From assembly GCA_000002445.1 (NCBI GenBank), contig AE017150.2:1088001-1152000 (forward strand): a stretch of 64,000 nt of DNA, given 5' to 3'. The stretch comes from Trypanosoma brucei (lineage: Eukaryota). Position 1 is the stretch's first letter. Every line of letters starts with the position of its first letter. Both the position numbers and the translations under genes were made by a program. The notes below the pieces were generated by a model. It did no database searches. It worked only from the letters and a program-made list of their open reading frames with translations, and had not been told where the DNA came from. Shown here one piece after another: positions 4,540-62,463 of the stretch.

Positions 4540-4615
4540 TTCTTTTCTTGTTTTTTTATTTTTGTCTTTTATCATTATTATTATTTTCTTATTCATATTC
4601 TTTGAAGGGGGAAAA
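4540..4615 (+). promoter_or_regulatory. Polypyrimidine tract upstream of the coatomer beta' gene; candidate trans-splice signal
   Basis: A T/C-rich run (ttcttgtttttttatttttgtcttttatcattattattattttcttattcatattctttg) lies about 320 nt upstream of the ATG at 4934. Confidence 0.35.
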
Positions 4616-4933
4616 AAGAAAGAAAAGAAACCTAACGGTTGGAAGGTTAAATAGAGTGAAAGAGAAGCACGAAACTTTTCACCACCAAATTGGAGGGAAG
4701 GGAAGAAAGAAAAAGAAGAAAAAACAAATCAGAAAGAATATTAAGGAAAAAAAAAATACTGAAAAAAGAAAAAAAAAGAAGGAAGAGCAGAAGTTCTTGT
4801 AGGTGTTATTATTTGCTGTTTTTGTTGTTGTTTTGTTTGTAGAAAAGTAGAAGAAGAGCACAAAAGGAAGAGAAGCAACAGCAGATAAAAAAAGAAAAAT
4901 AAAGAAGAGAGAAAAGGAGAAGGAGAAGGAAAA

Positions 4934-17753: not shown

Positions 17754-19374
17754 AAAAAAAATAAAAATAATGTCATAATGATACCTTCAGTGCATTTGCA
17801 GTACGCCGCGTCCATAAAGAAGAAATGGTGTTGATGAATTTATTATTAATTTTTTAAAAGGAAGGAAGGGTGGAAGAAAAGACAAGAAGAAGAACAAGAG
17901 CCGCTTTTGTTCTTTTTCTTTTTGTTTCGTCTGTTTGTTTCTCCATGGTACATAAAAACTGTGCAGTATTGTTTTCCACCCATTAAAAAAAAATGAGTGT
18001 TAACGCATGAAGTTCCATACAACTGTTTAATTTCATCCAGAAAGAATTCGCCCCAACGTGCCCTACTTCTCAAAATAAAACCCGTTAATTCTTTCGCTAT
18101 CATCCGTTTTGTGTTTTTTTTTCCTTTTCTCATTACTGAATCAGCACTCCTAAAAAAAAGTGCGCCATTCCCCAAAATAGCACGGTAAAGGGCGAATGTT
18201 TGTGTAATTTCGAAAAAAAAAATAAAGGAAGATGTTATAAATGCATGCAGCCCAATACTTGAGAAATGTGTATTTTCTACACCTTAACATCAATTTTTTT
18301 TTTGTAAAGGACAAACTCACTGAGTGTTTAGTGACTGCGCTTCTTCAAACTTTTCTCCCTCAAGGCGTATTATGCAGTTGCAGAGAGTCATCTGTTTTCT
18401 GCTCCTTCTCCGCTTGCTAATGATTTGTGTTTATGCGTGTTGCTTCCTTTTTTATATTGTAAGTAATAGAAGACAAAAAAGGGGATATTACATATTACAT
18501 ATTTTATTTCGTATGTTAGCATGGTTGCATAATTTATGCTGCTGTAGAGGCGTGTGTTATGGATTGTAGTATTTGGAGAAGTTGTTTGACTAAAAGTTAC
18601 AAAAGCTAACCCTGTGTGTGATGGATTGTTAATTTATATAAACTTGTTTAACTTTACATTAGAATATAAATTTATTTATTGTCATTTAAATAGTTCCCCC
18701 ATATGAGAAAACTAAATGAACACGTATATGCACGTACATGTATGTGTATATTTGCATATTTGTTGTTTATGTATATTATATTTGAGTAATGTTAGTAAGG
18801 TGAGAAAACGGCTGTGTAATAAATCATTTTTATTTGGTATGCTTTGAGTGCGCGCGCGTGGGTTCTTTATTTCTATTATTAGAAAAGGAAACTGCAATAA
18901 TTGTTTCATTATTAAAAGTTCTTCATGACTCTTGTTTTTAAGTTTAGCATTTTGCTATTACTCAAATCATGTGAATTAAGGGAGGACTCATATCAGTATC
19001 ATATGATGATATTTGAAACAATTTAGAGACGCCTGATATTACTCAATACTCTAACTCTTTTTTTTCCTTTCATATCCATTGCATTTATATTGTGATATGA
19101 TAAGTTGATTTGTGTTAGCATTCAAATGCAGCATTGTTATTATTAATATTAACTTCCTTAAGGGAAATTAATTCGAAAGGAATGTTATTGTAAAAGGATT
19201 CAAATTGCAAGTAGTTATTCAGATAATGTTAATAATTTATACACAATTTTATATTTATTGTAGTTGTAGTAGTGTGCGTATTTCAACAAAGGTACCACTA
19301 ATTTTGCAGTTACTAAAAAGTTATAATGACACAATTCTATTTCTTGATAATGTGAGTCCCTGAATTTGTTGTTC

Positions 19375-19445
19375 TCTTTATATTTTTCACTTTGCTTTTC
19401 TTTTCTTTCATTTCATATATGTTTTTCTTTTTGTTATATAGACAA
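19375..19445 (+). promoter_or_regulatory. Polypyrimidine tract plus AG upstream of NT copy 1; the same element sits upstream of every NT copy
   Basis: ttctctttatatttttcactttgcttttcttttctttcatttcatatatgtttttctttttgttatatagacaaac occurs ~40 nt before each NT ATG. Confidence 0.4.
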
Positions 19446-19480
19446 ACTTATTATATCACTATTTCAAGTAATTCAAAAAG

Positions 19481-20869
19481 ATGGCAATGCTTGGTTTCGA
19501 GTCGACAGCTGAATTTTTCGTCTATCTCACCTTTATCTTTTTTGGGATGTCGGTGATGAATGTGACGAATGCCATTTACTCCAATTATGATTATTTCTCG
19601 GAATATTACAAGTTTGCGCAGCGTAATGCAGATGCGATATCCTCCAATCCATCATTCTGGAAGCACATGTTCACGTATTATAATGTTGTTGTGTTTACGA
19701 TGCAAGTGCTTTTGGAGGCTTTTATGCTCACACCATTGGGCCGACGCATTCCTATTAGTTGGCGTCTCATCTTTGGACTCACAATTCCTATGGTGGAGAT
19801 TATTGTGATTTTAGTGATCCCTGAAGTTGGAGGAAGCGAAGATGGTGCAATCGCAACTATGATGATAGTTGCTTTTGTTGGTGGTATTTCCAAAACACTT
19901 TGTGACTCCAGCAATGCTGCACTTGCGGGACCGTTTCCGACTAAATTCTATGGTGCCATCGTGTGGGGTCTTGCTGTCTCTGGCCTCATGACTTCATTTA
20001 TGTCTATTGTTATCAAAGCATCGATGGACAGCAGTTTTGAAAGCAAGAGAGTTCAGTCCCAAATATACTTTGGATTAGTCATGCTTCTTCAGGTGGTTGC
20101 ATGCGTGCTTCTTGTCCTTCTGAGGAAAAACCCATATGCCATTAAATATGCTGCAGAATTTAGGTATGCTGCGAGGAAGGATGGAGCAACAGGTGAAGAA
20201 GATGACACCGATTTTAAAGGAAGGGGCCCAGCAGATGAGAATAGATATCCCGATGAAAAGGATGACAAGAATGTGCTGAATGCTGATATTGATCCAGATA
20301 AGATGAAGGATACGGATCAGGTTGAAGGCACTACCAACGCTCAGCAGATGCTTGATGCGAGTGTTATGGTTGTGGTGAAACGCATTTGGCCCATGTTACT
20401 TTCATGCTTCTTTGTGTTCTTTGCGACACTTCTTGTATTCCCTGGTGTATTCTTTGCCGTTAAAGGCTCGATGGATCTTAATAACTTTTGGTACTTTCCC
20501 GTTGCCATTGCCATGTTCAACTTGGGTGATTTCTTGTCTCGTCTGGTGCTGCAGTTCAAGCAATTGCATGTGTCTCCGCGTATGGTTTTGATTGGTTCAT
20601 TTGCACGTGCACTTTTGATAATTCCTCTTTCTCTTTGTGTGTCCGGTGCAATTCCTGGTGTGGGGGTTCCTTTTACCGTTTCTCTCCTTTGGGGTCTCAC
20701 AAATGGTTACTTTGGTGGCCTTTCAATGATTTATGGACCACGTACGGGATCCCTCACCACAGCGGGTCAACGCTCTCTTGCTGCCATTTGCATTAATGTT
20801 GCCCTTCTTATGGGTCTTTTTGCTGGTGCTATGTTTGCCTTGGCTGTTAAGGAGGGACTTCCTAAATAA
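19481..20869 (+). CDS. Equilibrative nucleoside transporter (ENT family), TbNT2-family purine nucleoside transporter, copy 1; 462 aa
   Basis: Multi-pass membrane protein (MAMLGFESTAEFFVYLTFIFFGMSVMNVTNAIYS...) with a large charged central loop (KDG..EDD..PDEK..NADIDPDKMKD) and about 11 hydrophobic segments. It matches my recollection of the TbNT2-7 ENT proteins. Which TbNT number each copy carries cannot be decided from the sequence alone. Confidence 0.92.
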   Translation: MAMLGFESTAEFFVYLTFIFFGMSVMNVTNAIYSNYDYFSEYYKFAQRNADAISSNPSFWKHMFTYYNVVVFTMQVLLEAFMLTPLGRRIPISWRLIFGLTIPMVEIIVILVIPEVGGSEDGAIATMMIVAFVGGISKTLCDSSNAALAGPFPTKFYGAIVWGLAVSGLMTSFMSIVIKASMDSSFESKRVQSQIYFGLVMLLQVVACVLLVLLRKNPYAIKYAAEFRYAARKDGATGEEDDTDFKGRGPADENRYPDEKDDKNVLNADIDPDKMKDTDQVEGTTNAQQMLDASVMVVVKRIWPMLLSCFFVFFATLLVFPGVFFAVKGSMDLNNFWYFPVAIAMFNLGDFLSRLVLQFKQLHVSPRMVLIGSFARALLIIPLSLCVSGAIPGVGVPFTVSLLWGLTNGYFGGLSMIYGPRTGSLTTAGQRSLAAICINVALLMGLFAGAMFALAVKEGLPK

Positions 20870-20956
20870 ATTTCTCAAAACTTGTAAATACTTTAAGTAA
20901 TGACATATCATTAGTTTTTAATTTATTAATGAAAAAGAAGATAAATGATACTCGAT

Positions 20957-20978
20957 GCTGGTATCAGCTAGGAGTGGT
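20957..20978 (+). promoter_or_regulatory. Conserved 3'-flank hairpin motif GCUGGUAUCAGCUAGGAGUGGU, 88 nt after the NT copy 1 stop
   Basis: The motif is conserved downstream of all five NT genes while the flanking 3' sequence has diverged. GCUG/CAGC can form a 4-bp stem with a GUAU loop. Confidence 0.35.
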
Positions 20979-23589
20979 GTGAATGATGCAATAAAAAGAA
21001 GGGTAAGGATAGTAAAGAGATGAGCGAGAAATTGAAATATGAGGAATAAGAATAAATTCTAGTTAGAAAAGAATTATATGATATTTGAGAGTAATGAAGC
21101 ATATGCGTGCACACGTTATGTTGTTTTAAATGTGATAAATGGTATAAAAGAAGAAAGTACGTCTTTCCCTTTTCGTTTCTCTAAACTTGTGACTGAGTAT
21201 AAATAAACATATCTGCAATCATTTTAAAAGAGAGAGAAGTGGACGGAGGACCGCAGGTGCGCGTTCATATAATTGTCTTTTTCTTTTTTCCCGTTTTCAT
21301 TATGTTGTGATTGACTCCCTACAAATATCATAATTTCCTCCAATGTTTTGTGTAGCTTTCGTAATTTTTAACAGGAGAAATGATGGTGCAGATCCATTCT
21401 TTGGTGTATACTCAATTTTTGTCTTCTGTTGGATCAATTTCTTTTTGTTGAAACAAAAAAGCAAAAAGGAGGAAATAAAATATACGACTGTAGAAACATA
21501 AACGAACTATCAAAAAAAAAACACATATACATATTTATAATATGTGTTCTTTCTGCACAAAAAAAAAAAGAAAAAAATTGTATTAGTTACAATAATAAAA
21601 AATAGTGAAGCCAGCAGGAGGTGATAATTACAATTTGAACTCATCCCCTCTTGCCTATTTCACTATTCCCTTTGTTTCTTGAGAAAATAACTAAAACAGT
21701 AAAACAAGAGAGAGGATAGTAATAAATTGAATGAAATCAACAATACATTATTTTAAGAGGAAATTTGATTTTACTTTTTCTTTACTTTTCACTGTTTCTG
21801 TTTTTTGATTACTTTTACTTCCTTTCATTTCTTACTTTTTATTCCCATGACTGTGCTATGGTGTTACGGATATGTGTGTGTAAGTGAGGAATGTTGTGTG
21901 GATTTGCTTCTATTATTGTTTACTTGCCTTTGGTTGTATATCACACGCCTGCTTATGTTTTCCCATATGTGTACGCCTGCAGCAAACAGTGTGGGAATTT
22001 ACTCCGTGACTTTTTCTCATAAATGTCGGGAGGCAAATAATTAAATTAATTTTTTGTTTAATGTATCTGTATATGTTTGTCTGTTTATGTGTATGTGTTT
22101 GTGTGTACGTATTTGACATGTTCAGCAATATGTTTAGATTATCCAATAATAACTTCTCTTCCTTTCTATCTCTTATACAGTTATGTTGTTTACTTGTCAC
22201 TGTTTTACTTTCAGGAAAGTGTATAAATTAAGCTGAAGCAACGTTATGTTTATTTGTGTATTAGGCGCATGAATTCATTTTCTAGCAGTTAATGTACGTA
22301 TGCATACACGCATGTGTTTAACTTTATAATGTCTTATACTAAAAATGTATTCAAATATTGCCATGTGAATACCGTGTGAGGCTTATTGTATTTTTGTGTC
22401 GTGAAATAGTCAAGTAGTTGCTGTGTAACTTTTGTGTTTTTTCTTAAATAGATGACGTGTGTTTCCTTAGTTTAAAATATTTAATAAATGATTTGACAGC
22501 TGCTTGCATGTGAGAGTTTCATTCCTCTTCTTTGCTTAAAAATGTGCAGAGACTGGAATCCTTCATATAAATGATGTGAAATGCATAACTTATAAATTGC
22601 ATTTCCACTTTCACATATTGTAATATTATTGAGTATCAAAAGGGAAATGATGAATTACGTAATAGGAAGTTATTCACAACATGTTAATAGAGCAATTTAA
22701 CTTCGCAGCTATCACAGAACAGGCTTTTTATTGTAATGCTTATTTGTGGAATAGCTCATGCTTTATGAATTCTTGAGGATGGAGCGTTGTAATATTTTTA
22801 AAAGTAAACATAAGTAAACAAATAAATAAACAGTTTATCATTTTTGTATTTGCCTTCATAATCACTATAAGCTAAGCTATTAGTCTATTAACAATAATTA
22901 ATATGGCTACTAGTAAGGCAAAAGACGAGAAATAAGAAATTAATTTATAGGAATGATTTGATAGTTTGACGAATGTGTAATTATCATGTCTCTGATACTA
23001 GTGACGGATTATGATAGAGAGAATATGATTTGTGAGGTAGTTTTGATTCTCTGAAGTGATACAGCGGCGCATGGGAACTCGTCGTAAGAAAAAAAGAAAT
23101 AAATAATGTGCGGTATGTAATTTTTAAACCTCACATTGATGAGGTTGTGAGGCATAAAATAACTCTTGCCATTTTCCCAACGTGGCCAACAGTCGAAGAA
23201 CTGGTGCAACACTGCAGTAATGATACAGTGATGTTAAATTGAAAGCGAAAAATAAATATGAATGGCGTAAAAAGGGGGAAGGAAGTAGTGATGGTGGCGT
23301 AATCGATTTGGATTGTTTTTCGTGACAAATTCTCTACATTCAATGATTCTAGAGGAAACAAGTACGTACCATAGCAGTGGTTACTGTGTTTCCATAAGGA
23401 GTAAGTTATATTTACTGGAAAATGTGGTATTAAGAAATGTTATATGTGAGTAGTAATATACCTCAACACAGAGATGTACGCTCATGTAATCACTACACAA
23501 AAACCTTCCGAATGTTTTGAACGCACTGAGCGGATTGATGCGTCTCTCCAACCTTGAGTTGAAATGCACAACCCTTGAGTGTTGAGTTG

Positions 23590-26100
23590 GGATACATATT
23601 TTTAGATGTCACTAGAGCTTGATGTGTGGAATGAAACTCTAGAGCTCATGCATATGGCTAATGCTTATCATCGTCGTAACTTCCATGTTGGTACGATGAT
23701 GTGCAGTTTGCTGTTAGTGATAGCCTTCAGTGGATTGTATGGTAGGTGGTGTTTCTCTGTTTGTTTTCTGTCACAGATGGCAATGGAAGCGTCGACTATC
23801 TTTTGTATTACTCAGAAGGGAAAATTCTCTTTTTAAGTAATGGTAATGTTGAATCGTTGATAAAATCAACGGAATTATCCATAAGCTAGTTTTAATTGGA
23901 GGAAAGGAGAATAGGAGAACTGCCCACTTTGATGTGTTGCCAACAAACGAAAACAAGTGGTATGTATATTTTAGAACCCAGTATTTTTCTTTCTTATCCG
24001 ATGTACTTCCCTAATGTTTGGATCTGAGAAATACCTAATGATGATTAATACGGTTAGAGTTAGGGCATTCTTTTGTGATGCTGAATATCGCATCTATTGA
24101 TAACAGCAATCGATACGCCATACTCAAACATAAATGAATTCTCACACATTAACGCTGCTTCTGGTATCGCCAACCGTTATGTTCAATAGCTCGTTACGTG
24201 GGAGCATGAGTGGATGTAATGATGGATGCCGCTTCATCAAAGGCAGCTGCGTGATACTTATCTCAGAATATGTCAATGGTGTCGTATTATAGCCAAGTTT
24301 AAGTCTAATAATTAATCATAGTGATGTGTGTGGAAAAAGTGAGATTGTACCATTGCAGTGAGTGAACCGCTTTGCTTGGGACGTATTGCATTGTGCTGTG
24401 TGATTAAGCGCCGAGTTTGTTCACATCATACGTATGATATTTAGTTACTGTCAACCCACCGGATTGGTGTGGGAGGAGTGTAAGGCATCGTGCGAGCATG
24501 GGACATATGTTTCATCGCAGTGTCACGGAGGTTTTAAGGTATGGTGGAATATGGGAGGTGGATTAGCTATAGATCTCTTTGTGCCTCCATCCCTTCGTGC
24601 TATGCTTTTTCTTTTCCCCTGAAACTGATACAGTCTGGGGAGGCAGTGTGCTGAAGCTTCGCTAAGGTTTTGAAAGCAGGACTCACGACCCATCCCCCAC
24701 TGTGTAATGTATGATGACCAGATTTGTTCTGAGGGAGCATCAAACCAATCGTGTACGATGGAAGTGTAGAATAGGAAGTAAAGGAAAGTGTATTATTATG
24801 TGCAGATGCGTATGAGGCACTGCTCACAACACCTAAAGAAAGCAAAGTCACTCCTGACGGTTTTGATCATTTTATCAGTGTATCACAATCTAATCATTTC
24901 TGCTGTAGAAGGTTCGTTGCATAGTTGTGTGTATTCTGCTTTCAGAGTTGACATTCTGTCACTTACCACTGTGGAGAGTGATCACGATAATATCGTCGGC
25001 TTTCCGGTATGGAAGGAAGTATCACTTTACTCTTCTGCTCGTATAAGCGTGCTTTGTTCATCCGTGGAGCGGTGTTGTTATTGAAAAGGGGATGCTGAGT
25101 AGAGTGGTGACTCAACACTTTTTCTTGTACTGAAGACATACTAAGAGGTTCTGTCAGCAGGACAGACTTGCGGTGGCCAGGTGGTTTCGCGACCTCAGGG
25201 ACAACTTCCATATTGCACAAGGGGAACTTCTTCGTTTTGAGGTGACAGGGCGCATGCTAGTGTTGGGATATCTGTACATTGGAATGGCAAGGTCTTCCAG
25301 GGAAGGAAGGGAGGTGTATAAACCAGTGAAGGGCTGCACAGGTACTGTGTCAGGTATGAAAGTGATAGAGGTCTCTAAGGAAGTGTCAGATGTGATTATA
25401 CTCGGCAAGAGGTTGCTGCTCAAGGTTTTGATTATATACTTTCCGAAACAATCAAATGTTGCGAAAATTACGTTGAAAGAAAGTTTAGGGGGAGCAATGG
25501 GATAAGGGAAACCCTCACTGGATTGTTTTGTCGGGTATACAGCATGATAAGTGGAAGGTTTGGTGGAGAAGCACGCAGGTACACCACACCCAATTGGTGG
25601 GAGAGTAGTAATGGCCGGGAGCATTTACCGTGAGTGACAACTCCAACAATGGATGCTAAGTAGTTAATGTTGAAATGTTTTAAAACGTTAGAGAAAGGAA
25701 TGACTAAATGGTTGTAGGTACGTAAATTGTGGGAAGCACTGAGGGAAAATGATGTAATGATGCGACGGACCAAGGGACTCGAATACCCAATATATTACAA
25801 GAAACGCTACTATTGAGTTGGGTGCAGAAACAAGTGAGAGACAAGCTGTTTGGGTAGTTGAAGTATCGACCACTGGGAAGGGTGAAGCGTGGGCAGGAAG
25901 GATCATCAAATCTTATCCTCCTTTCAGTTAATATGACTGAAGAAGCGAGAAAAGAAAAAGAATGGTTGTGAAAAGAGAAATTAGCGAAAAAGAATTAGTA
26001 GAAGCAATTGTGGCGTCAAAAAAGACGTTAAGGGTAGCGTTAGTACAAATAGAAAAGCAGCCAACTCTAAAAAATTGGTTTCCGACGTAAAGGAAGCGGG
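23590..26100. other. Conserved ~2.5 kb block of relatively GC-rich spacer, open on both strands (overlapping 85-156 codon ORFs); function unknown; copy 1
   Basis: Recurs at about 34008-36520, 44104-46610 and 54160-57130. I recognise no protein motif in any frame. It could be a decayed gene, a retroelement relic or an ncRNA locus. Confidence 0.3.
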
Positions 26101-26389
26101 GACAGGTGAATAAAACTATTTAATTTGTACCAGTTTACATGTATGAAAATGACCTCATATGTGTGTGATTTGCTCCTGTTAACTCGGTGAACATCGGAAC
26201 TGACACGTTGCTCTGTGCTATTGTAGCAATGCACTCCAGTGTGATATCACTGGAACTATGAAACCTTATATTTCTTATGGCGTTGTATCAGTGCTTCCAC
26301 TATGGTATCATTATGTTAACGTGAGCAGTATATTGTCACGTGGTGGACAACATGTCAACTAGTTTGTTTAAACTGTTGCTCTCTTGACA

Positions 26390-26475
26390 GCTTGTAATTC
26401 GTATCATTCTGTTGTGTTCTTTTCCTTTCTTGTTTATTCTTCCAAAATACTGTTATCGGAAGGACCCCCTTTATC
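26390..26475 (+). promoter_or_regulatory. Polypyrimidine tract upstream of 2OG-oxygenase copy A; conserved upstream of all copies
   Basis: ttctgttgtgttcttttcctttcttgtttattcttccaaaatactgttatcggaaggaccccctttatccttatttttgcatctgc sits upstream of the ATG at 26587. Confidence 0.35.
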
Positions 26476-26586
26476 CTTATTTTTGCATCTGCACTGGCTG
26501 TTTAAGCGGACCCTTTCCAATTGTTAGGCACAAAACGGTACATATATATATATTTCAAGAAAGCAACAGTGTGTAATTTAGAAACC

Positions 26587-27546
26587 ATGACACGCGCCTC
26601 GCTTCCTGTTATTGATGTTTCGCCCCTATTTGGTGGCGAATCCGCAGAAAAGGAAAGGGTCTCCAAGCAGATTGATAATGCATGCAGAACATGGGGCTTC
26701 TTCTACATTGTGGGGCATCCGATCCAGCAGGAGCAGATTGAGAGGGTGCTAGATGTAGCGAAGAATTATTTTTCACTCCCCATGGAAGAGAAGCTCAAAT
26801 TGGACATTCGTAAAAGTAAGCTGTATCGTGGTTATATTGCTTTTGGGGCCGAGGACCCCGATGATGCTAAGGTCTACGGCTACGAGGGGTTCAATATGGG
26901 GCACCATCTTCCGAAGCACCACCCAGAGGTTATGGCAGGAGTGCCGCTCCGAGGACCGAACATCCACCCCACTCAGGTAAAGGGCTGGGCGGAGGAAATG
27001 GAAAATCAATATGACGATATGTGGGCCCTTTCACTTGTTATCCTGCGCGCTATGGCACTGGGACTCGGCCTGCGGGAAGATTTCTTCGACTCCAAGTTTA
27101 TGGATCCGATGTGTGAATTGAATATAAAGCATTACCCTTCCCCAACCACTACAGGCAAAAAATCTCATTTGCTTATTGAGCACGCTGACTTTTGCGCTAT
27201 TACATTACTCTATCAAGACGGTGTGGGTGGCTTGCAAATTCGAGGACTTTCCGGAGAGCTGATGGATGTGCCACCTGTTGAAGGAAGTTTTGTTGTCAAC
27301 ATTGGAGACATGATGGAGATGTGGACCAATGGCCAATACCGTTCTACCATGCACCGTGTTGTTCCGAGAAGTGGCACACGGTACTCCATGCCTTTTTTCT
27401 GTGTCCCAAACCCGAATGTCATTATTAAGTGCCTCGACAACTGTCATTCGGAGGAGAATCCACCAAGGTACCCTCCAGTGCGGGCTGTTGACTGGATTTT
27501 GAAGCGATTCGCGGAAGTGTTTTCGCTTGCAAAACCTAAAATGTAG
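26587..27546 (+). CDS. 2-oxoglutarate/Fe(II)-dependent dioxygenase, isopenicillin-N-synthase-like ('iron/ascorbate oxidoreductase' family), copy A (type I, with a divergent C-terminal tail); 319 aa
   Basis: DIOX_N-like N-terminus (LPVIDVSPLFGG...WGFFYIVGHPI). Iron-binding facial triad H-x-D...H (LLIEHADF ... STMHRVV) and the 2OG-binding R-x-S (RYSMPFF) are all present. The supplied ORF begins 66 nt earlier; the ATG at 26587 (MTRASLPV) is conserved in all four copies. Confidence 0.9.
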   Translation: MTRASLPVIDVSPLFGGESAEKERVSKQIDNACRTWGFFYIVGHPIQQEQIERVLDVAKNYFSLPMEEKLKLDIRKSKLYRGYIAFGAEDPDDAKVYGYEGFNMGHHLPKHHPEVMAGVPLRGPNIHPTQVKGWAEEMENQYDDMWALSLVILRAMALGLGLREDFFDSKFMDPMCELNIKHYPSPTTTGKKSHLLIEHADFCAITLLYQDGVGGLQIRGLSGELMDVPPVEGSFVVNIGDMMEMWTNGQYRSTMHRVVPRSGTRYSMPFFCVPNPNVIIKCLDNCHSEENPPRYPPVRAVDWILKRFAEVFSLAKPKM

Positions 27547-29940
27547 GAGTTCCTCTTAGTTTGCATTTCTTTTAGTATTTGCTTTATCAAGAATGGTATC
27601 AGGCCCTACGATTAGTAGTTGGTTTCAGATATGAATGATTTACATATGCGTAGTATCTGTCGTAATGCAAAAAGTTCTGTGATTTAAAATCTGTGTGAAG
27701 ACAGTACGGTAACGTATCTAGTCAGAATGAATATATTTCGCTCACTCTTTATTTTCAATGTAGGGAATTGTTAAAGGGGTAATAATATTTCTTTCACCTT
27801 TCCTCTTCTTTTTTCATTATCATCTTTGTAATGAATGCTGTAAGGCTATCTTTTATCCTACTTTGATATCTTCATCTATTTCCTTATTACATTGGATAAT
27901 GGATTGATATCTTCACTACGATGACAACTGAAGTATTCTGACAAACAATGGGTGCATGCTATTGTATGTTAGTTTGTGATGCAGTAGAGTCCTCCTTGGA
28001 AATATTTGTCTTTTTTTCCCTCTCTGAGGGGTTTCTACCTTTTTCTTTTCTCATTGCATTTTAAGGGTTAATTACGCATTAGAAATGCTACCCTTCACTT
28101 TGAAGTCATTCCTTCTTACACAGGTATTATTTTGATGCGATCTCATGCGAGGAGAATGGAGGTAGATGGAGAATGAAAAAAACTCACATTCTCCACCCAC
28201 CCAATGGAGAGCATACGTTTTACCATGGAAGTCGCGCTTGAAGTATCTCCCCAAGTAGAGCAAACTAATGAGGAATTAGCACCTAAGGGTTGCGTTGTTA
28301 AATATGTTGAAAGAGTGATGTGTATGTGGGGTTCGTACGTGAAGGATAAGGGATTTTGAGGGTGCTTACTCTTATTGTGTTTTTAATTTTTTTTCTTGAG
28401 AAAGGAGGGTGGCCAATTATATAATGTCACCTGACGAATGGGATTGCTGTGTATCACGCTGTTTGTAATTGTTACATATATTGGTAAGAAATAATTTTTT
28501 TTGTTATGTGAATTTCAATGCGTTTGATGTTTTTTGCCACCGCACTTATGTTGAGTCTGTTCTGTACCTCTTACTGTATGTTGAACATACCATTCTCTAT
28601 TATTTTCTCATTTTTTTGCCTCAGCTTTCCAGGGGAAACACATGTGGTACATATGAGATGGAATACACTAAACGACACCTAACACTGTGGGAGAATGTGA
28701 TAAATGCATGCAACTCAATAGTTGAGAAATGTGTATTTTCTACACCTTAACATCAATTTTTTTTTTGAAAAAGACAAACTCACTGAGTGTTTAGTGACTG
28801 CGCTTCTTCAAAAATTTTTCCCTCAAGGCGTATTATGCAATCGCGGAAAGTTATTTGTTTTCTGCTCCTTCTCCGCCTACTAATGATTTGTGTTTACACA
28901 TGTAGCTTCCTTTTTTATATTGTAAGTAATAGAAGACAAAAAAGGGGATATTATATATTACATATTTTATTTTGTATGTTAGCATGGTTGCATAATTTAT
29001 GCTGCTGTAGAGGCGTGTGTTATGGATTGTAGTATTTGGAGAAGTTGTTCGACTAAAAGCTATAAAAGCTTGCCCTGTGTGTGATGGATTTTTAATTTAT
29101 ATAAACTTGTTTAGCTTTATATTAGAATATAAATTTATTTATTGTCATTTAAATAGTTCCCCCATATGAGAAAACTAAATGAACACGTATATGTAAGTAT
29201 ATGTATATTTATATTCGCATATTTGTTGTTTATGTATATTATATCTGAGTAATGTTGGTAAGGTAAGAAAACGGCTGTGTAATAAATCATTTTTATTTGG
29301 TATGCTTTGAGTGCGCGCGCGTGGGTTCATTAGTTCTATTATCAGAAAAGGAAACTGCAATAATTGTTTCATTATTAAAAGTTCTTCATGACTCGTGTTT
29401 TTAAGTTTAGCATTTTGCTATTACTCAAATCATGTGAATTAAGGGAGGACTCATATCAGTATCATATGATGATATTTGAAACAATTTAGAGACGCCTGAT
29501 ATTACTCAATACTCTAACTCTTTTTTTTCCTTTCATATCCATTGCATTTATATTGTGATATGATAAGTTGATTTGTGTTAGCATTCAAATGCAGCATTGT
29601 TATTATTAATATTAACTTCCTTAAAGGAAATTAATTTGAAAGGAATGTTATTTTAAAAGGATTCAAATTGCAAGTAGTTATTCAGATAATGTTAATTGAT
29701 ACATAATTTTATATTTATTGTAGTTGTAGTAGTGTGCGTATTTCAACAAAGGTACCACTAATTTTGTAATTACTAAAAAGTTATAATGATACAATTCTAT
29801 TTCTTGATAATGTGAGTCCCTGAATTTGTTTTTCCCTTCATATTTTTCACTTTGCTTTTCTTTTCTTTCATTTCATATATGTTTTTCTTTTTGTTATATA
29901 GACAAACTTATTATATTATTATTTCAAGTAATTCAAAAAG

Positions 29941-31335
29941 ATGGCAATGCTTGGTTTCGAGTCGACAGCTGAATTTTTTGTCTATCTCACCTTCATCTTT
30001 TTTGGGATGTCGGTGATGAATGTGACGAATGCCATTTACTCCAATTATTATTTTTTTTGGGAATACTACAAGTTTGCGCAGGGTAATGAACATGCTGTTT
30101 CTGCAAATCCATCATTCTGGAAGCACATGTTCACGTATTATAATGTTGTCGTGTTTACCATGCAAGTGCTTTTGGAGGCCTTTATGCTCACACCATTGGG
30201 CCGACGCATTCCTATTAGTTGGCGTCTCTTTTTTGGACTCTCACTTCCCATGGTTGAAATCATTGTAATTTTGGTTATTCCTGCTGTTGGAGGAACAAGT
30301 GAGGGCGGTGCGATGGCAACTATGATGATAGTTGCTTTTGTTTGTGGTATTTCCATGACACTCTGTGACTCCAGCAATGCTGCACTTGCGGGACCGTTTC
30401 CAACTAAATTCTATGGTGCCACCGTGTGGGGTCTTGCTGTCTCTGGCCTCATGACTTCATTTTTGGCTATTGTTATCCAAGCATCAATGAAGGATAACTT
30501 TGAAAGCAGACGAACTCAGTCCCAAATATACTTTGGATTAGTCATGTTTCTTCAGGTGGTTGCATGCGTCCTTCTTGTCCTTCTGAGGAAAAACCCATAT
30601 GCCATTAAATATGCTGCAGAATTTAGGTATGCTGCGAGGAAGGATGGAAAGACAGATGATGGCGAAGATGAAAACGATGCAAAGGGAACAGGACCAGCAG
30701 ACGAAGATGGGTATCCTGATGAAAAAGAGAATAAGAATGTATTGAATGCTGATATTGATCCAGATAAGATGAAGGATACGGATCAGGTTGAAGGCACTAC
30801 CAACGCTCAGCAAATGCTTGATGCGAGTGTTATGGTTGTGGTGAAACGCATTTGGCCCATGTTACTATCTTGCTTCTTTGTATTCTTTGCGACACTTCTT
30901 GTATTCCCTGATGTATTTGTTGCTGTTAAAGAAGGGTTCCCAACTCATGGGGGATGGTACTTTACAATTGTTGTTGCCATGTTCAACTTGGGTGATTTCT
31001 TGTCTCGTCTTGTGCTGCAGTTCAAGCGGTTGCATGTGTCTCCGCGTATGGTCATGATTGGTTCATTTGCACGTGCACTGCTGATAATTCCTCTTTCGCT
31101 TTGTGCTGCCGGAACCATTCCTGGTGTGTGGCTTCCCTACACCGTTTCTCTCCTTTGGGGTCTCACAAATGGTTACTTTGGTGGCCTTTCAATGATTTAT
31201 GGACCACGTACGGGATCCCTCACCACAGCGGGTCAACGCTCTCTTGCTGCCATTTGCATTAATGTGGCTCTTTTACTCGGTCTTTTTGCTGGTGCTATGT
31301 TTGCATTGGCTGTTAAAGAGGGACTTCCTGAATAA
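29941..31335 (+). CDS. ENT-family nucleoside transporter, TbNT2-family, copy 2; 464 aa
   Basis: About 85-90% identical to copy 1. It is a mosaic of segments shared with the other copies. Confidence 0.92.
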   Translation: MAMLGFESTAEFFVYLTFIFFGMSVMNVTNAIYSNYYFFWEYYKFAQGNEHAVSANPSFWKHMFTYYNVVVFTMQVLLEAFMLTPLGRRIPISWRLFFGLSLPMVEIIVILVIPAVGGTSEGGAMATMMIVAFVCGISMTLCDSSNAALAGPFPTKFYGATVWGLAVSGLMTSFLAIVIQASMKDNFESRRTQSQIYFGLVMFLQVVACVLLVLLRKNPYAIKYAAEFRYAARKDGKTDDGEDENDAKGTGPADEDGYPDEKENKNVLNADIDPDKMKDTDQVEGTTNAQQMLDASVMVVVKRIWPMLLSCFFVFFATLLVFPDVFVAVKEGFPTHGGWYFTIVVAMFNLGDFLSRLVLQFKRLHVSPRMVMIGSFARALLIIPLSLCAAGTIPGVWLPYTVSLLWGLTNGYFGGLSMIYGPRTGSLTTAGQRSLAAICINVALLLGLFAGAMFALAVKEGLPE

Positions 31336-31409
31336 GTTTTGAAAATTTATGATACCTTCAAATAATGTGAAAAATTTTTTGTAACTAGTGAAATAAAAAA
31401 AAGCTCCGT

Positions 31410-31430
31410 GCTGGTATCAGCCAGGAGTGG
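31410..31430 (+). promoter_or_regulatory. Conserved 3'-flank hairpin motif (gctggtatcagccaggagtgg), 75 nt after the NT copy 2 stop
   Basis: Same motif as at 20957. Confidence 0.35.
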
Positions 31431-34400
31431 TTTTAATAATTTAAGAAAAAAAAGTAAAAAGGAGGAAATGAAGAATGGGAAATAACAATAAATTGTACGA
31501 ATAAGGATAATAGGGGACCCGGAAGCGAGCAAGCATGGATTTTATCTGTTTTATTCATGTTTATGGGGAATTTCTTTAAACATTATCGTATGTGTTTATC
31601 AATTTTTTTGCGGTGTATATACGTGTTGTTGAAGATACATTTTACATGGTCTAAAGAATATTGTGAGGAACTGAAGTTGTTGTCATGTTGCACTTATGTT
31701 GTTACCTTCTTATTTGTTATTATGCTGTTGTACAATCGATTCTAATAACATAATTTCTTTGAGTATCTTTTGAAGGTTATGTAATGTTCATATGGGAAAA
31801 TGAAGGTGCAGAACCATTCTTTGGTGTATACTCAATTTTTGTCTTCTGTTGGATCAATTTCTTTTTGTTGAAACAAAAAAGCAAAAAGGAGGAAATAAAA
31901 TATACGACTGTAGAAACATAAACGAACTATCAAAAAAAAAACACATATACATATTTATAATATGTGTTCTTTCTGCACACACAAAAAAAAAAGAAAAAAA
32001 TTGTATTAGTTACAATAATAAAAAATAGTGAAGCCAGCAGGAGGTGATAATTACAATTTGAACTCATCCCCTCTTGCCTATTTCACTATTCCCTTTGTTT
32101 CTTGAGAAAATAACTAAAACAGTAAAACAAGAGAGAGGATAGTAATAAATTGAATGAAATCAACAATACATTATTTTAAGAGGAAATTTGATTTTACTTT
32201 TTCTTTACTTTTCACTGTTTCTGTTTTTTGATTACTTTTACTTCCTTTCATTTCTTACTTTTTATTCCCATGACTGTGCTATGGTGTTACGGATATGTGT
32301 GTGTAAGTGAGGAATGTTGTGTGGATTTGCTTCTATTATTGTTTACTTGCCTTTGGTTGTATACCACACGCCTGCTTATGTTTTCCCATATGTGTACGCC
32401 TGCAGCAAACAGTGTGGGAATTTACTCCGTGACTTTTTCTCATAAATGTCGGGAGGCAAATGATTAAAGTGTTTTTTTTTGTTTAATATATCTGTATATG
32501 TTTGTCTGTTTATGTGTGTGTGTTTGTGTGTACGTATTTGACATGTTCAGCAATATGTTTAGATTATCCAATAATAACTTCTCTTCCTTTCTATCTCTTA
32601 TACAGTTATGTTGTTTACTTGTCACTGTTTTACTTTCAGGAAAGTGTATAAATTAAGCTGAAGCAACGTTATGTTTATTTGTGTATTAGGCGCATGAATT
32701 CATTTTCTAGCAGTTAATGTACGTATGCATACACGCATGTGTTTAACTTTATAATGTCTTATACTAAAAATGTATTCAAATATTGCCATGTGAATACCGT
32801 GTGAGGCTTATTGTATTTTTGTGTCGTGAAATAGTCAAGTAGTTGCTGTGTAACTTTTGTGTTATTCTTAAATAGATGACGTGTGTTTCCTTAGTTTAAA
32901 ATATTTAATAAATGATTTGACAGCTGCTTGCATGTGAGAGTTTCATCCCTCTTCTTTGCTTAAAAATGTGCAGAGACTAGAATCCTTCATATAAATGATG
33001 TGAAATGCATAAATTATAAATTGCATTTCCACTCTCACGTATTTTAGTATTATGAAGTATCAAATAGGGAAATGATGAAATATGTAATAGGAAGTTATTC
33101 ACAACATGTTAATAGAGCAATTCAACTTCGCAGCTATCACAGAACAGGCTTTTTATTGTAATGCTCAATTGTGGAATAAGACATGCTTTATGAATTCTTG
33201 AGGATGGAGCGTTGTAATATTTTTAAAAGTAATATAAGTAAACAAGCAAACAAATTATCGTTTTTGTTTCTTCCTTCATAATCACTATAAGCTAAGCTAT
33301 TAGTCTATTAACAATAATTAATATGGCTACTAGTAAGGCAAAAGACGAGAAATAAGAAATTAATTTATAGGAAAGATTTGATAGTTTGACGAATGTGTAA
33401 TTATCATGTCTCTGATACTAATGACGGATTATGATAGAGAGAATGTGATTTGTGAGGTAGTTTTGATTCTCTGAAGTGATACAGCGGCGCATGGGAACTC
33501 GTCGTAAGGAAAAAAAATAAATAATGTGCGGTATGTAATTTTTAAACCTCACATTGATGAGGTTGTGAGGCATAAAATAACTCTTGACATTTTCCCAACG
33601 TGGCCAACAGTCGAAGAACTGGTACAACACTGCAGTAATGATACAGTGATGTTAAATTGAAAGCGAAAAATAAATATGAATGGCGTAAAAAGGGGGAAGG
33701 AAGTAGTGATGGTGGCGTAATCGATTGTTACTGTGTTTCATGACAAATTCTCTACATTCAATGATTCTAGAGGAAACAAGTACGTACCATAGCAGTGGTT
33801 ACTGTGTTTCCATAAGGAGTAAGTTATATTTACTGGAAAATGTGGTATTAAGAAATGTTATATGTGAGTAGCAATATACCTCAACACAGAGATGTACGCT
33901 CATGTAATCACTACACAAAAACCTTCCGAATGTTTTGAACGCGTTGACCGGATTGATGCGTCTCTCCAACCTTGAGTTGAAATGCACAACCCTTGAGTGT
34001 TGAGTTGGGATACATATTTTTAGATGTCACTAGAGCTTGATGTGTGGAATGAAACTCTAGAGCTCATGCATATGGCTAATGCTTATCATCGTCGTAACTT
34101 CCATGTTGGTACGATGATGTGCAGTTTGCTGTTAGTGATAGCCTTCAGCAGATTGTATGGTAGGTGGTGTTTCTCTGTTTGTTTTCTGTCACAGATGGCA
34201 ATGGAAGCGTCGACTATCTTTTGTATTACTCAGAAGGGAAAATTCTCTTTTTAAGTAATGGTAATGTTGAATCGTTGATAAAACCAACGGAATAATCCAT
34301 AAGCTAGTTTTAATTGGAGGAAAGGAGAATAGGAGAACTGCCAACTTTGATGTGTTGCCAACAAAGGAAAACGAGTGGTATGTATATTTTAGAACCCAGT

Positions 34401-37002
34401 GTTTTTCTTTCTTATCCGATGTACTTCCCTAATGTTTGGATCTGAGAAATACCTAATGATGATTAATACGGTTAGAGTTAGGGCATTCTTTTGTGATGCT
34501 GAATATCGCATCTATTGATAACAGCAATCGATACGCCATACTCAAACATAAATGAATTCTCACACATTAACGCTGCTTCTGGTATCGCCAACCGTTATGT
34601 TCAATAGCTCGTTACGTGGGAGCATGAGTGGATGTAATGATGGATGCCGCTTCATCAAAGGCAGCTGCGTGATACTTATCTCAGAATATGTCAATGGTGT
34701 CGTATTATAGCCAAGTTTAAGTCTAATAATTAATCATAGTGATGTGTGTGGAAAAAGTGAGATTGTACCATTGCAGTGAGTGAACCGCTTTGCTTGGGAC
34801 GTATTGCATTGTGCTGTGTGATTAAGCGCCGAGTTTGTTCACATCATACGTATGATATTTAGTTACTGTCAACCCACCGGATTGGTGTGGGAGGAGTGTA
34901 AGGCATCGTGCGAGCATGGGACATATGTTTCATCGCAGTGTCACGGAGGTTTTAAGGTATGGTGGAATATGGGAGGTGGATTAGCTATAGATCTCTTTGT
35001 GCCTCCATCCCTTCGTGCTATGCTTTTTCTTTTCCCCTGAAACTGACACAGTCTGTAGAGGCAGTGTGCTGAAGCTTCGCTAAGGTTTTGAAAGCAGGAC
35101 TCACGACCCATCCCCCACTGTGTAATGTGTGATGACCAGATTTGTTCTGAGGGAGCATCAAACCAATCGTGTACGATGGAAGTGTAGAATAGGAAGTAAA
35201 GGAAAGTGTATTATTATGTGCAGATGCGTATGAGGCACTGCTCACAACACCTAAAGAAAGCAAAGTCACTCCTGACGGTTTTGATCATTTTATCAGTGTA
35301 TCACAATCTAATCATTTCTGCTGTAGAAGGTTCGTTGCATAGTTGTGTGTATTCTGCTTTCAGAGTTGACATTCTGTCACTTACCACTGTGGCGAGTGAT
35401 GACGATGATATCGTCGGCTTTCCGGTATGGAAGGAAGTATCACTTTACTCTTCTGCTCGTATAAGCGTGCTTTGTTCATCCGTGGAGCGGTGTTGTTATT
35501 GAAAAGGGGATGCTGAGTAGAGTGGTGACTCAACGCTTTTTCTTGTACTGAAGACATACTAAGAGGTTCTGTCAGCAGGACAGACTTGCGGTGGCCAGGT
35601 GGTTTCGCGACCTCAGGGACAACTTCCATATTGCACAAGGGGAACTTCTTCGTTTTGAGGTGACAGGGCGCATGCTAGTGTTAGGATATCTGTACATTGG
35701 AATGGCAAGGTCTTCCAGGGAAGGAAGGGAGGTGTATAAACCAGTGAAGGGCTGCACAGGTACTGTGTCAGGTATGAAAGTGATAGAGGTCTCTAAGGAA
35801 GTGTCAGATGTGATTATACTCGGCAAGAGGTTGCTGCTCAAGGTTTTGATTATATACTTTCCGAAACAATCAAATGTTGCGAAAATTACGTTGAAAGAAA
35901 GTTTAGGGGGAGCAATGGGATAAGGGAAACCCTCACTGGATTGTTTTGTCGGGTATACAGCATGATAAGTGGAAGGTTTGGTGGAGAAGCACGCAGGTAC
36001 ACCACACCCAATTGGTGGGAGAGTAGTAATGGCCGGGAGTATTTACCGTGAGTGACAACTCCAACAATGGATGCTAAGTAGTTAATGTTGAAATGTTTTA
36101 AAACGTTAGAGAAAGGAATGACTAAATGGTTGTAGGTACGTAAATTGTGGGAAGCACTGAGGGAAAATGATGTAATGATGCGACGGACCAAGGGACTCGA
36201 ATACCCAATATATTACAAGAAACGCTACTATTGAGTTGGGTGCAGAAACAAGTGAGAGACAAGCTGTTTGGGTAGTTGAAGTATCGACCACTGGGAAGGG
36301 TGAAGCGTGGGCAGGAAGGATCATCAAATCTTATCCTCCTTTCAGTTAATATGACTGAAGAAGCGAGAAAAGAAAAAGAATGGTTGTGAAAAGAGAAATT
36401 AGCGAAAAAGAATTAGTAGAAGCAATTGTGGCGTCAAAAAAGACGTTAAGGGTAGCGTTAGTACAAATAGAAAAGCAGCCAACTCTAAAAAATTGGTTTC
36501 CGACGTAAAGGAAGCGGTAACAGGTGAATAAAACTATTTAATTTGTACCAGTTTACATGTATGAAAATGACCTCATATGTGTGTGATTTGCTCCTGTTAA
36601 CTCGGTGAACATCGGAACTGACACGTTGCTCTGTGCTATTGTAGCAATGCACTCCAGTGTGATATCACTGGAACTATGAAACCTTATATTTCTTATGGCG
36701 TTGTATCAGTGCTTCCACTATGGTATCATTATGTTAACGTGAGCAGTATATTGTCACGTGGTGGACAACATGTCAACTAGTTTGTTTAAACTGTTGCTCT
36801 CTTGACAGCTTGTAATTCGTATCATTCTGTTGTGTGCTTTTTTTTGTCTTGTTTATTCCCCTGAGATATTACTGGTAAGTCCCCCTTTATCCTAATTTTT
36901 GCATCTGCACTGGCTGTTTAAGCGGACCCTTTCCAATTGTTAGGCACAAAACGGTACATATATATATATTTCAAGAAAGCAACAGTGTGTAATTTAGAAA
37001 CC

Positions 37003-37962
37003 ATGACACGCGCCTCGCTTCCTGTTATTGATGTTTCGCCCCTATTTGGTGGCGAATCCGCAGAAAAGGAAAGGGTCTCCAAGCAGATTGATAATGCATG
37101 CAGAACATGGGGCTTCTTCTACATTGTGGGGCATCCGATCCAGCAGGAGCAGATTGAGAGGGTGCTAGATGTAGCGAAGAATTATTTTTCACTCCCCATG
37201 GAAGAGAAGCTCCAATTGGACATTCGTAAAAGTAAGCTGTATCGTGGTTATATTGCTTTTGGGGCCGAGGACCCCGATGATGCTAAGGTCTACGGCTACG
37301 AGGGGTTCAATATGGGGCACCATCTTCCGAAGCACCACCCAGAGGTTATGGCAGGAGTGCCGCTCCGAGGACCGAACATCCACCCCACTCAGGTAAAGGG
37401 CTGGGCGGAGGAAATGGAAAATCAATATGACGATATGTGGGCCCTTTCACTTGTTATCCTGCGCGCTATGGCACTGGGACTCGGTCTGCGGGAAGATTTC
37501 TTCGACTCCAAGTTTATGGATCCGATGTGTGAATTGAATATAAAGCATTACCCTTCCCCAACCACTACAGGCAAAAAATCTCATTTGCTTATTGAGCACG
37601 CTGACTTTTGCGCTATTACATTACTCTATCAAGACGGTGTGGGTGGCTTGCAAATTCGAGGACTTTCCGGAGAGCTGATGGATGTGCCACCTGTTGAAGG
37701 AAGTTTTGTTGTCAACCTTGGAGACATGATGGAGATGTGGACCAATGGCCAATACCGTTCCACAAAGCATCGTGTGGTAGCCACAGACAAGGAACGGTAC
37801 TCCATGCCTTTCTTTTGCAATCCCAATCCGAATGTCATCGTCAAGTGCCTCGACAACTGTCACTCGGAAGAGAATCCACCAAGGTACCCTCCAGTGCGGG
37901 CTGTTGATTGGGTTTTGAAGCGGTTCGCGGAGGCATATGGGAAAGATTACTCAAAAATGTAG
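37003..37962 (+). CDS. 2OG-Fe(II) dioxygenase, IPNS-like family, copy B (type I); 319 aa
   Basis: Identical to copy A over residues 1-270 except K/Q at position 71. The HxD...H and RxS motifs are present (IEHADF, STKHRVV, RYSMPFF). Confidence 0.9.
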   Translation: MTRASLPVIDVSPLFGGESAEKERVSKQIDNACRTWGFFYIVGHPIQQEQIERVLDVAKNYFSLPMEEKLQLDIRKSKLYRGYIAFGAEDPDDAKVYGYEGFNMGHHLPKHHPEVMAGVPLRGPNIHPTQVKGWAEEMENQYDDMWALSLVILRAMALGLGLREDFFDSKFMDPMCELNIKHYPSPTTTGKKSHLLIEHADFCAITLLYQDGVGGLQIRGLSGELMDVPPVEGSFVVNLGDMMEMWTNGQYRSTKHRVVATDKERYSMPFFCNPNPNVIVKCLDNCHSEENPPRYPPVRAVDWVLKRFAEAYGKDYSKM

Positions 37963-41741: not shown

Positions 41742-41812
41742 TAAGTATTTTCTAAACTCTAAGTAATGTCATAACATTTTTTTTAATTAATGAGAAAGAA
41801 CATTAAATATAT

Positions 41813-41833
41813 GCTGGTATTAGCTACGAATGG
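41813..41833 (+). promoter_or_regulatory. Conserved 3'-flank motif, variant (gctggtattagctacgaatgg), 72 nt after the NT copy 3 stop
   Basis: Variant of the motif at 20957. The stem remains possible with a G-U pair. Confidence 0.3.
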
Positions 41834-51843: not shown

Positions 51844-51903
51844 ATTCTCAATAATTGTAAAAATTACAATTAATACAATTTTTTTTTTTAAAAAAGGCTC
51901 CAT

Positions 51904-51924
51904 GCTGGTATCAGCTAGGAGTGG
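51904..51924 (+). promoter_or_regulatory. Conserved 3'-flank hairpin motif (gctggtatcagctaggagtgg), 61 nt after the NT copy 4 stop
   Basis: Same motif as at 20957. Confidence 0.35.
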
Positions 51925-62374: not shown

Positions 62375-62442
62375 GAGTTTTTAAAACATTAAATAATGTC
62401 TAAACTTTTTTTAAATTAATAAAATAAAAAAATAAACTCCAT

Positions 62443-62463
62443 GCTGGTATCAGCTAGGAGTGG
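62443..62463 (+). promoter_or_regulatory. Conserved 3'-flank hairpin motif (gctggtatcagctaggagtgg), 69 nt after the NT copy 5 stop
   Basis: Same motif as at 20957. Confidence 0.35.

Follow-up and report, generated by a model that had tools for sequence, protein, structure and literature searches.

What an oxygenase is doing among nucleoside transporters is the question raised by the right-hand part of chromosome 2 of Trypanosoma brucei, where five genes for ENT nucleoside transporters (PF01733) alternate with four open reading frames (ORFs) for a 319-residue oxygenase. The stretch that was analyzed, referred to here as the window, comprises the 64,000 nucleotides at positions 1,088,001–1,152,000 of contig AE017150.2 (assembly GCA_000002445.1), and the array within it is the NT2-7 array, whose products are purine nucleoside (P1) carriers. 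Trypanosomatids are unable to make purines, and purine uptake and salvage have long been pursued as drug targets and provide several nucleoside-analogue drugs with their way into the cell. We consider it probable that the array gene encodes an Fe(II)/2-oxoglutarate (2OG) oxygenase with a full predicted catalytic set, from a family that functions in purine acquisition. With moderate confidence, the substrate is taken to be a purine base or nucleoside, a base being most likely and a nucleoside possible. Three mutually independent lines connect the family with purine acquisition: its bacterial members have an operon-like purine context, a Leishmania member responds to purine starvation, and the T. 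brucei genes share a cassette and stage regulation with the transporters; the predicted compartment and the architecture of the pocket are consistent with such a role. The oxygenase is probably an unrecognized step in trypanosomatid purine scavenging.

The elements of the array, in window coordinates, are the following.

18294..64000, plus strand: tandem array of an approximately 10.4-kb cassette (transporter and oxygenase), about 4.4 units in the window, from repeat spacings
19481..20869, plus strand: ENT nucleoside transporter copy 1 of 5 (Pfam PF01733, E 3.6e-31)
26587..27546, plus strand: oxygenase copy 1, type A, 319 residues, ending in -PKM (ORF, Pfam, AlphaFold2 model)
29941..31335, plus strand: ENT nucleoside transporter copy 2 (Pfam PF01733)
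37003..37962, plus strand: oxygenase copy 2, type A body with a type B 3' end; its product is the same as TREU927 protein P0001
40353..41741, plus strand: ENT nucleoside transporter copy 3 (Pfam PF01733)
47099..48058, plus strand: oxygenase copy 3, type B
50452..51843, plus strand: ENT nucleoside transporter copy 4 (Pfam PF01733)
57623..58582, plus strand: oxygenase copy 4, type B
60974..62374, plus strand: ENT nucleoside transporter copy 5 (Pfam PF01733)

Copy 1 of the oxygenase extends from an ATG at 26587 to a stop codon at 27544–27546, and its product matches the Pfam domains DIOX_N (E 7.5e-33, 114.1 bits; gathering cut-off 27.3) and 2OG-FeII_Oxy (E 6.7e-24, 84.6 bits; gathering cut-off 23). 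The AlphaFold2 model (pLDDT 87.7, pTM 0.89) has the double-stranded β-helix fold and a lid helix at residues 300–313, and Foldseek gives TM values of 0.81–0.86 to 6JYV, 5C3P and IPNS. The first-pass annotation of this DNA had described the protein as a catalytically intact 2OG oxygenase of the IPNS-like branch, related to fungal thymine-7-hydroxylase (T7H), and both points are borne out: the Fe(II) facial triad (H199-x-D201...H256) is invariant in the four copies and in 33 aligned relatives, the clamp for the C5-carboxylate of 2OG (R265-x-S267 together with Y183) is present in all four copies, and no natural enzyme of known function is closer than the T7H of Neurospora crassa (NcT7H; E 2e-40, 32% identity). 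The residue roles of T7H, taken from its structure paper (PMC4787775), were placed on the alignment to give a signature of 15 pocket and cofactor positions, which changes hardly at all between Pseudomonas and Leishmania. The corresponding sites in copy 1, with its C-terminal tripeptide, are given below.

27121..27129, plus strand: N179-I-K181; position 179 corresponds to T7H Arg190
27181..27192, plus strand: H199-A-D201-F202, two Fe(II) ligands and the base-capping aromatic residue (T7H Tyr217)
27352..27354, plus strand: H256, the third Fe(II) ligand
27379..27387, plus strand: R265-Y-S267, the 2OG C5-carboxylate clamp, with Y183 at 27133–27135
27394..27405, plus strand: F270-F271-C272-V273; F271 corresponds to T7H Phe292 (base stacking) and 273 to T7H Asn294
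27493..27507, plus strand: W303...R307 on the C-terminal lid helix (T7H Tyr324 and Arg328)
27535..27543, plus strand: C-terminal -PKM, a PTS1-like glycosome-targeting tripeptide (copies 2–4 end in -SKM)

The four copies are of two types, copies 1 and 2 being 94% identical (type A) and copies 3 and 4 nearly identical (type B), with 77% identity between the types. Gene conversion has homogenized the first ~150 nt of all four copies (26587–26736 and equivalents) and the last ~240 nt of copies 2–4, so that copy 2 is a chimera of a type A body and a type B end (37723–37962) and only copy 1 has a unique 3' end. Comparison of the two window isoforms gives a dS of 0.56 and a dN/dS of 0.27 (ranges 0.37–0.59 and 0.26–0.30), from which it follows that both are under purifying selection and are maintained. 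These values, the intact Fe and 2OG ligands of all four copies, the 3–13-fold regulation of the mRNAs and a published report of up-regulation at the protein level in bloodstream forms leave us giving almost no credence to the idea that the array copies are passengers of the transporter genes, either in decay or already without catalytic activity. That idea would suit the loss of the T7H Arg190 equivalent, although K181, two residues along the same strand, could replace the lost arginine; it would also suit the variation in copy number, which is five in T. b. brucei versus two in T. b. gambiense (Jackson et al. 2010).

The surroundings of the bacterial relatives point to purine bases rather than nucleosides. 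One genome was scanned per species and the best 80 loci were kept, nearly all of them from Pseudomonas, Stutzerimonas, Azotobacter or Paucimonas (Pseudomonadaceae). The gene immediately upstream, in the same orientation, encodes a Bmp-family solute-binding protein in every locus (80/80; median gap 147 nt), and the gene directly downstream is of the adenine-deaminase type in 62 loci (median gap 98 nt) and xdhA in six. Within 8 kb there are ABC permeases in 59–60 of the loci and, on the upstream side, an 8-oxoguanine deaminase in 53 (NCBIfam NF006055, 703 bits; for example at 3941–5296 of locus L088); the oxygenase might supply this deaminase with an oxidized purine. The order in Stutzerimonas is Bmp–oxygenase–xdhA–xdhB–xdhC–guanine deaminase (locus L091, 1057–8436), which places the oxygenase beside a molybdenum xanthine dehydrogenase, not an adenine deaminase, and in a 65%-identical lineage the order, all in one direction, is ABC ATPase–permease–permease–Bmp–oxygenase–adenosine deaminase.

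Against Pa0148, which we take to be a characterized adenine deaminase, the downstream deaminase reaches 648 bits, and the Pseudomonadaceae oxygenase would then occupy the position of PA0147, next to Pa0148. The Bmp protein scores 417 bits against 3S99, in which adenine was modeled, and 372 bits against AtzT, and its ligand-contacting residues equal those of 3S99 at seven of seven positions. AtzT has been reported to bind guanine at 0.11 μM, adenine at 2.5 μM and pyrimidines at 620 μM or weaker, and not to bind GTP. Judged from these similarities, the bacterial orthologue sits in a predicted unit for the import and catabolism of purine bases. A literature search on PA0147 and the Pseudomonadaceae oxygenase found no mention or biochemical characterization, and NCBIfam contains no model that matches the oxygenase.

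A second link to purines comes from purine-starved Leishmania donovani, in which 'oxidoreductase LinJ.29.0260' has the most induced mRNA in Table 1 of Martin et al. 2014, 10.34-fold by SL (spliced-leader) RNA-seq and 4.3-fold by quantitative reverse-transcription PCR (qRT-PCR). In the same study, the protein was detected in starved cells only, a reporter flanked by the untranslated regions (UTRs) of LinJ.29.0260 was up 5.8-fold, and LdNT1-3, 3'NT/NU and XPRT changed alongside it. The published qRT-PCR primers map to 10777–10794 and 10828–10845 of locus L008, inside the coding sequence of the orthologue (10001–10960), and the published targeting primers map to 9966–9987 and 10961–10982, immediately flanking it; LinJ.29.0260 therefore belongs to the oxygenase family.

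The array oxygenase is probably targeted to the glycosome. Its C termini conform to the PTS1 tripeptide pattern, with -PKM in copy 1 and -SKM in the other three (encoded at 37951–37959, 48047–48055 and 58571–58579). PTS1-like ends are confined to the African-trypanosome members of the family (-SKM, -AKM or -TKM, and -PKM in copy 1) and are absent from the proteins of T. cruzi, T. rangeli, Leishmania, Leptomonas and bacteria; it may be in the Salivaria that glycosomal targeting arose. A published meta-analysis counts a T. brucei 'thymine-7-hydroxylase', for which it gives a PTS1 and experimental evidence, among the enzymes assigned to the glycosome with high confidence, and the same list holds HGPRT, APRT, IMPDH, GMP reductase (GMPR) and AMP deaminase.

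Within T. brucei, a link between the array oxygenases and purine import is suggested by their adjacency to NT2-7 and by joint regulation in bloodstream forms. The alternation with NT2–NT7 was described by Jensen et al. 2009, who called the oxygenases uncharacterized and found them 3.3–13.2 times higher in bloodstream forms, with NT2-7 behaving likewise; both features have thus been known since 2009 and are not new. The cassette recurs with a period of 10,097–10,523 nt (spacings of 10463, 10410, 10097 and 10523 nt), and a Pfam and ORF scan of it found, besides the transporter and the oxygenase, no other ORF that matches a protein family. The first-pass annotation had seen at least four copies duplicated in lock-step with the transporters, and had taken co-amplification and shared polycistronic expression as fitting a nucleobase- or nucleoside-modifying role or an oxidative salvage role. 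Four oxygenases and five transporters are indeed present, but a single cassette was amplified, which amounts to one event, not four independent associations. Co-amplification and shared expression therefore lend the role little support, since the cassette formed once, the adjacency was seen in T. brucei alone among the loci examined, and polycistronic expression is common to every trypanosome gene. The proposed role itself gains from the bacterial clusters, the starvation response, the glycosomal record and the T7H-like platform described below, and is qualified by a remodeled pocket in the window copies. The expected co-regulation of oxygenase and transporter mRNAs under purine starvation is on record for the L. 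donovani orthologue together with LdNT1-3, that is, in a sister genus only.

The nearest matches to the window protein are other trypanosomatid sequences followed by Pseudomonadaceae proteins, with no other eukaryote among the 120 best matches. The window copies are the divergent members: copy 1 is 48–50% identical to the Pseudomonadaceae proteins and 54% to that of T. cruzi; the T. cruzi and L. donovani orthologues are 61–62% identical to Pseudomonas P0043, a value not far below the 68% between T. cruzi and Leishmania. In a distance-based neighbor-joining tree with modest sampling and bootstrap values, all kinetoplastid sequences form one clade (bootstrap 81) that is sister to a bacterial clade (89), and T7H and PaIPNS of Pseudomonas aeruginosa lie outside. 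To judge from these sequences, this looks like a gene transfer from a bacterium to trypanosomatids, with a Pseudomonas-like donor. The window copies nest inside the kinetoplastid clade of ancestral-type oxygenases, a term used here for family members whose substrate pocket matches the Pseudomonas one, and the chromosome 2 array and a strain-specific chromosome 9 gene form a long-branched clade (bootstrap 100) within the African trypanosomes. The chromosome 2 copies are classed as a T. brucei-specific, neofunctionalized paralogue; the exact substrate can therefore not be read from the orthologues and probably differs from that of the ancestral enzyme. The family has also undergone an independent expansion, without transporters, in T. 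vivax, where many near-identical ancestral-type copies lie on different contigs (the P0004 cluster, which includes T. congolense proteins); the T. vivax locus examined (L009, GCA_021307395.1) adjoins an ISG65/75 gene.

The ancestral pocket, His/Asp/Arg/Ile/Glu, is essentially constant from Pseudomonas to Leishmania and differs from the polar residues of T7H; the exceptions to it are the E122 equivalent in the T. brucei chromosome 5 copy and two positions in the L. mexicana protein. Clade-wide, the cofactor set and the equivalents of Phe292 (stacking), Tyr217 (capping) and Arg328 (lid helix) are all kept, and this platform fits a flat heteroaromatic substrate. Only the clade of chromosomes 2 and 9 is altered at five pocket positions, H80Y, D103N/T, R179N, I181K and E273V/N, so that the ancestral signature H/D/R/I/Y/F/E/[YW]/R reads Y/N(T)/N/K/F/F/V(N)/W/R in the window. 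Two acidic residues are lost and a basic residue is shifted by two positions along its strand. Position 179 is Asn in all four window copies and Arg in every ancestral-type protein, position 181 is Lys in the window copies and Ile, Val or Leu in the ancestral type, and position 273 is Val in copy 1, Asn in copies 2–4 and Glu in nearly all ancestral-type proteins. The positive charge at Lys181 may compensate for the lost Arg179. With five positions changed, function is carried over from the orthologues to the window copies by inference.

Several observations weigh against a role in purine acquisition. The oxygenase–transporter adjacency was observed in T. brucei only, among the loci examined: the orthologue of T. 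cruzi, like that of L. donovani, is present as one gene flanked by a tubulin-tyrosine-ligase (TTL) gene and RIO1, and no transporter was found within ±10 kb of the T. cruzi, L. donovani or T. vivax loci. Gene order in trypanosome polycistrons is usually without functional meaning, and a comparison of the transporter and oxygenase UTR regions of one cassette found no shared element of at least 25 nt. A single family supplies nearly all of the 80 bacterial loci, which are therefore not independent observations, and the loci of the Corticibacter and P0052 homologues have no purine neighbors. Induction by purine starvation could be a general stress effect. At five pocket positions the window copies differ from residues that the purine-linked orthologues keep invariant, and the window enzyme may have departed from the ancestral substrate class; one of the five is the equivalent of Arg190, the mutation of which abolishes T7H activity (R190K and R190A are inactive; PMC4787775). 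The literature that was searched contains no substrate or other biochemical data on any member of the clade, and the nearest natural solved structure (PaIPNS, 6JYV) is itself that of an orphan.

Some of these points would be expected if the oxygenase acted on a substrate unrelated to purines, if one segmental duplication had caught both genes, and if their joint expression came from regional or UTR effects: the ancestral position between TTL and RIO1, the lack of purine neighbors in the two bacterial homologues, the lack of a common UTR element and the remodeled pocket all agree with such an account. It leaves unexplained, however, the linkage to purine import in both the Pseudomonadaceae and a second lineage, the induction in purine-starved Leishmania, and the record of a T. 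brucei family member in the glycosome beside the purine salvage enzymes, and the base-stacking platform has been kept. We regard it as unlikely, although it deserves serious attention, and continue to prefer purine acquisition.

The steps of purine acquisition by this enzyme might be as follows. A purine imported by the neighboring NT2-7 carriers would pass into the glycosome and stack on F271 beside the Fe(II)/2OG center, where the ferryl intermediate would oxidize it, either by C-hydroxylation or by hydroxylation of an N- or C-substituent followed by loss of that substituent; these two chemistries are suggested by T7H and by the general Fe/2OG mechanism. The product would be a purine usable by the salvage enzymes, and amplification of the cassette would lift the dosage of transporter and oxygenase jointly in bloodstream forms. 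More tentatively, and with rather less than even confidence, we propose that an Fe(II)/2OG oxygenase of bacterial derivation makes otherwise unusable purine bases (e.g., N-methylated or substituted bases of the adenine or guanine type) salvageable, and that T. brucei evolved a second specificity and amplified it with the P1 transporters.

If this is correct, the array gene would belong to the first purine-acting group within the IPNS/T7H-like family, a widespread orphan gene of Pseudomonas purine clusters would acquire a function, and an oxidative step would be added to trypanosomatid purine salvage, which is usually held to be fully mapped. The pathway map would change, and the metabolism of purine analogues could be affected. 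The additional oxygen- and 2OG-dependent enzyme would have no counterpart in the human purine salvage pathway, and the locus would document a bacterial gene transfer that was later neofunctionalized.

Other features of the window concern the array and its flanks. Ahead of the array there are genes for a PI-PLC-domain protein, a coatomer subunit of the COPA/B type, a RanBP-type zinc-finger protein and an ABC protein. GC skew is greater than 0 in every 2-kb bin of the window and the long ORFs with family matches are all on the plus strand, as would be expected of one polycistronic transcription unit that continues into the array. The 5' flank of transporter copy 4 (50203–50502) has 72–73% identity to the corresponding regions, as against 94–97% among the other cassettes, and to judge from this divergence the regulation of that copy may differ. 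Each oxygenase gene is preceded, at a distance of about 1 kb, by a minus-strand ORF of 156 codons (25157–25624, 35575–36042, 45671–46138 and 56194–56661), antisense to the transcription unit, open in all four cassettes with amino acid identities of 99%, 99% and 81% and without a Pfam match; its conservation may be a simple trace of recent duplication.

Compared with its closest relatives, the array gene differs in context, regulation and pocket. The Pseudomonadaceae '2OG-Fe(II) oxygenase' has the same length and domains and forms the sister clade, but has the pocket H/D/R/I/E against Y/N/N/K/V in the window copy, lacks a PTS1 and lies in an operon-like cluster. The T. brucei copies on chromosomes 5 and 7 (including TLP7, Tb927.7.7500) and LinJ.29.0260 of L. 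donovani are 54–58% identical to the window copy. The chromosome 5 and 7 copies, like those of the window, have a PTS1-like end (-TKM), but show no bloodstream up-regulation, unlike the array copies. In contrast to the array, these ancestral-type relatives are single-copy genes at another locus (TTL–RIO1 in the T. cruzi and L. donovani loci examined).

N. crassa T7H (PDB 5C3P–5C3S) shares the two-domain DIOX_N/DSBH (double-stranded β-helix) fold and the HxD...H, RxS and Tyr residues, and it is the nearest natural enzyme of known function also by predicted fold (Foldseek E 5e-30, TM 0.83); nearer relatives exist but are uncharacterized. Its stacking Phe292 is present in the window copy as F271, its capping Tyr217, where Phe or Trp is allowed, as F202, and Tyr324 and Arg328 of its C-terminal lid helix as W303 and R307. 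Arg190, however, which is strictly conserved and bridges the C1-carboxylate of 2OG and the substrate, is replaced by Asn179 and Leu192 by Lys, and the uracil-recognizing Asn87, Glu122 and Asn294 are replaced by Tyr80, Asn or Thr103 and Val273 (Asn in copies 2–4), the ancestral type having His, Asp and Glu at these three positions. With Arg190 and the uracil-recognizing residues lost, the window enzyme is not to be filed as a T7H. That the family is nonetheless a true T7H, converting thymine to 5-carboxyuracil in pyrimidine salvage, is the reading of several database entries, in which the orthologues of T. cruzi, T. theileri, L. donovani and Leptomonas are named 'thymine-7-hydroxylase'. It draws on NcT7H, which scores best among the enzymes of known function and, with the catalytic half of the T. 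cruzi protein as query, ranks first in the PDB (119 bits), and on the kept Phe292, Tyr217 and Arg328 equivalents. We find it improbable, as identity is only 32–37%, the three uracil-recognizing residues differ clade-wide and Asn takes the place of the essential Arg190 in every window copy, the bacterial neighbors are purine and not pyrimidine genes, the family of the linked binding protein has an affinity for thymine ~5,000-fold below that for guanine, and context and regulation follow purine supply, not the pyrimidines of T7H. The first-pass annotation had also placed pyrimidine deoxyribonucleoside 2'-hydroxylase in this branch; a literature search for the identity of its gene found none.

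PaIPNS is the best natural PDB match (6JYV, E 3e-55; Foldseek TM 0.86), with 33% identity to the window copy and 42% to the ancestral-type proteins of T. cruzi and Pseudomonas. It is reported to bind Fe and 2OG with uncoupled turnover but to be without ethylene-forming enzyme (EFE) or IPNS activity, and so is an orphan; it is a different paralogue without an alignable C-terminal lid. An EFE-like role for the array enzyme, after a name that some database entries for homologues bear, was considered and rejected, as 9OVH, the best-scoring match named 'ethylene-forming enzyme', is a reconstructed ancestor and neither it nor PaIPNS has EFE activity.

Another reading is an enzyme that modifies a macromolecule, be it DNA, RNA or protein, or one with a function connected to ascorbate or antioxidant defense; name-based readings are found in two genome papers, and many 2OG oxygenases do act on nucleic acids or proteins. 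We think this very improbable for the array enzyme, in that the name 'iron/ascorbate oxidoreductase' was inherited from the ACC-oxidase family with no assay behind it, the modeled pocket is closed and lidded for a small molecule as in T7H, hydroxylation of thymidine in DNA is attributed to JBP1/2 of a distant branch, and the PTS1 suggests a metabolic organelle. Roles in ascorbate synthesis or antioxidant defense, and in the synthesis of base J, an activity assigned to JBP1/2, were accordingly set aside. A precedent for the hydroxylation of a purine base by an enzyme of this kind is provided by the fungal XanA, an Fe(II)/2OG xanthine dioxygenase, which belongs to the TauD family and not to the DIOX_N/IPNS-like enzymes, so that its likeness to the array oxygenase is one of analogy, not homology.

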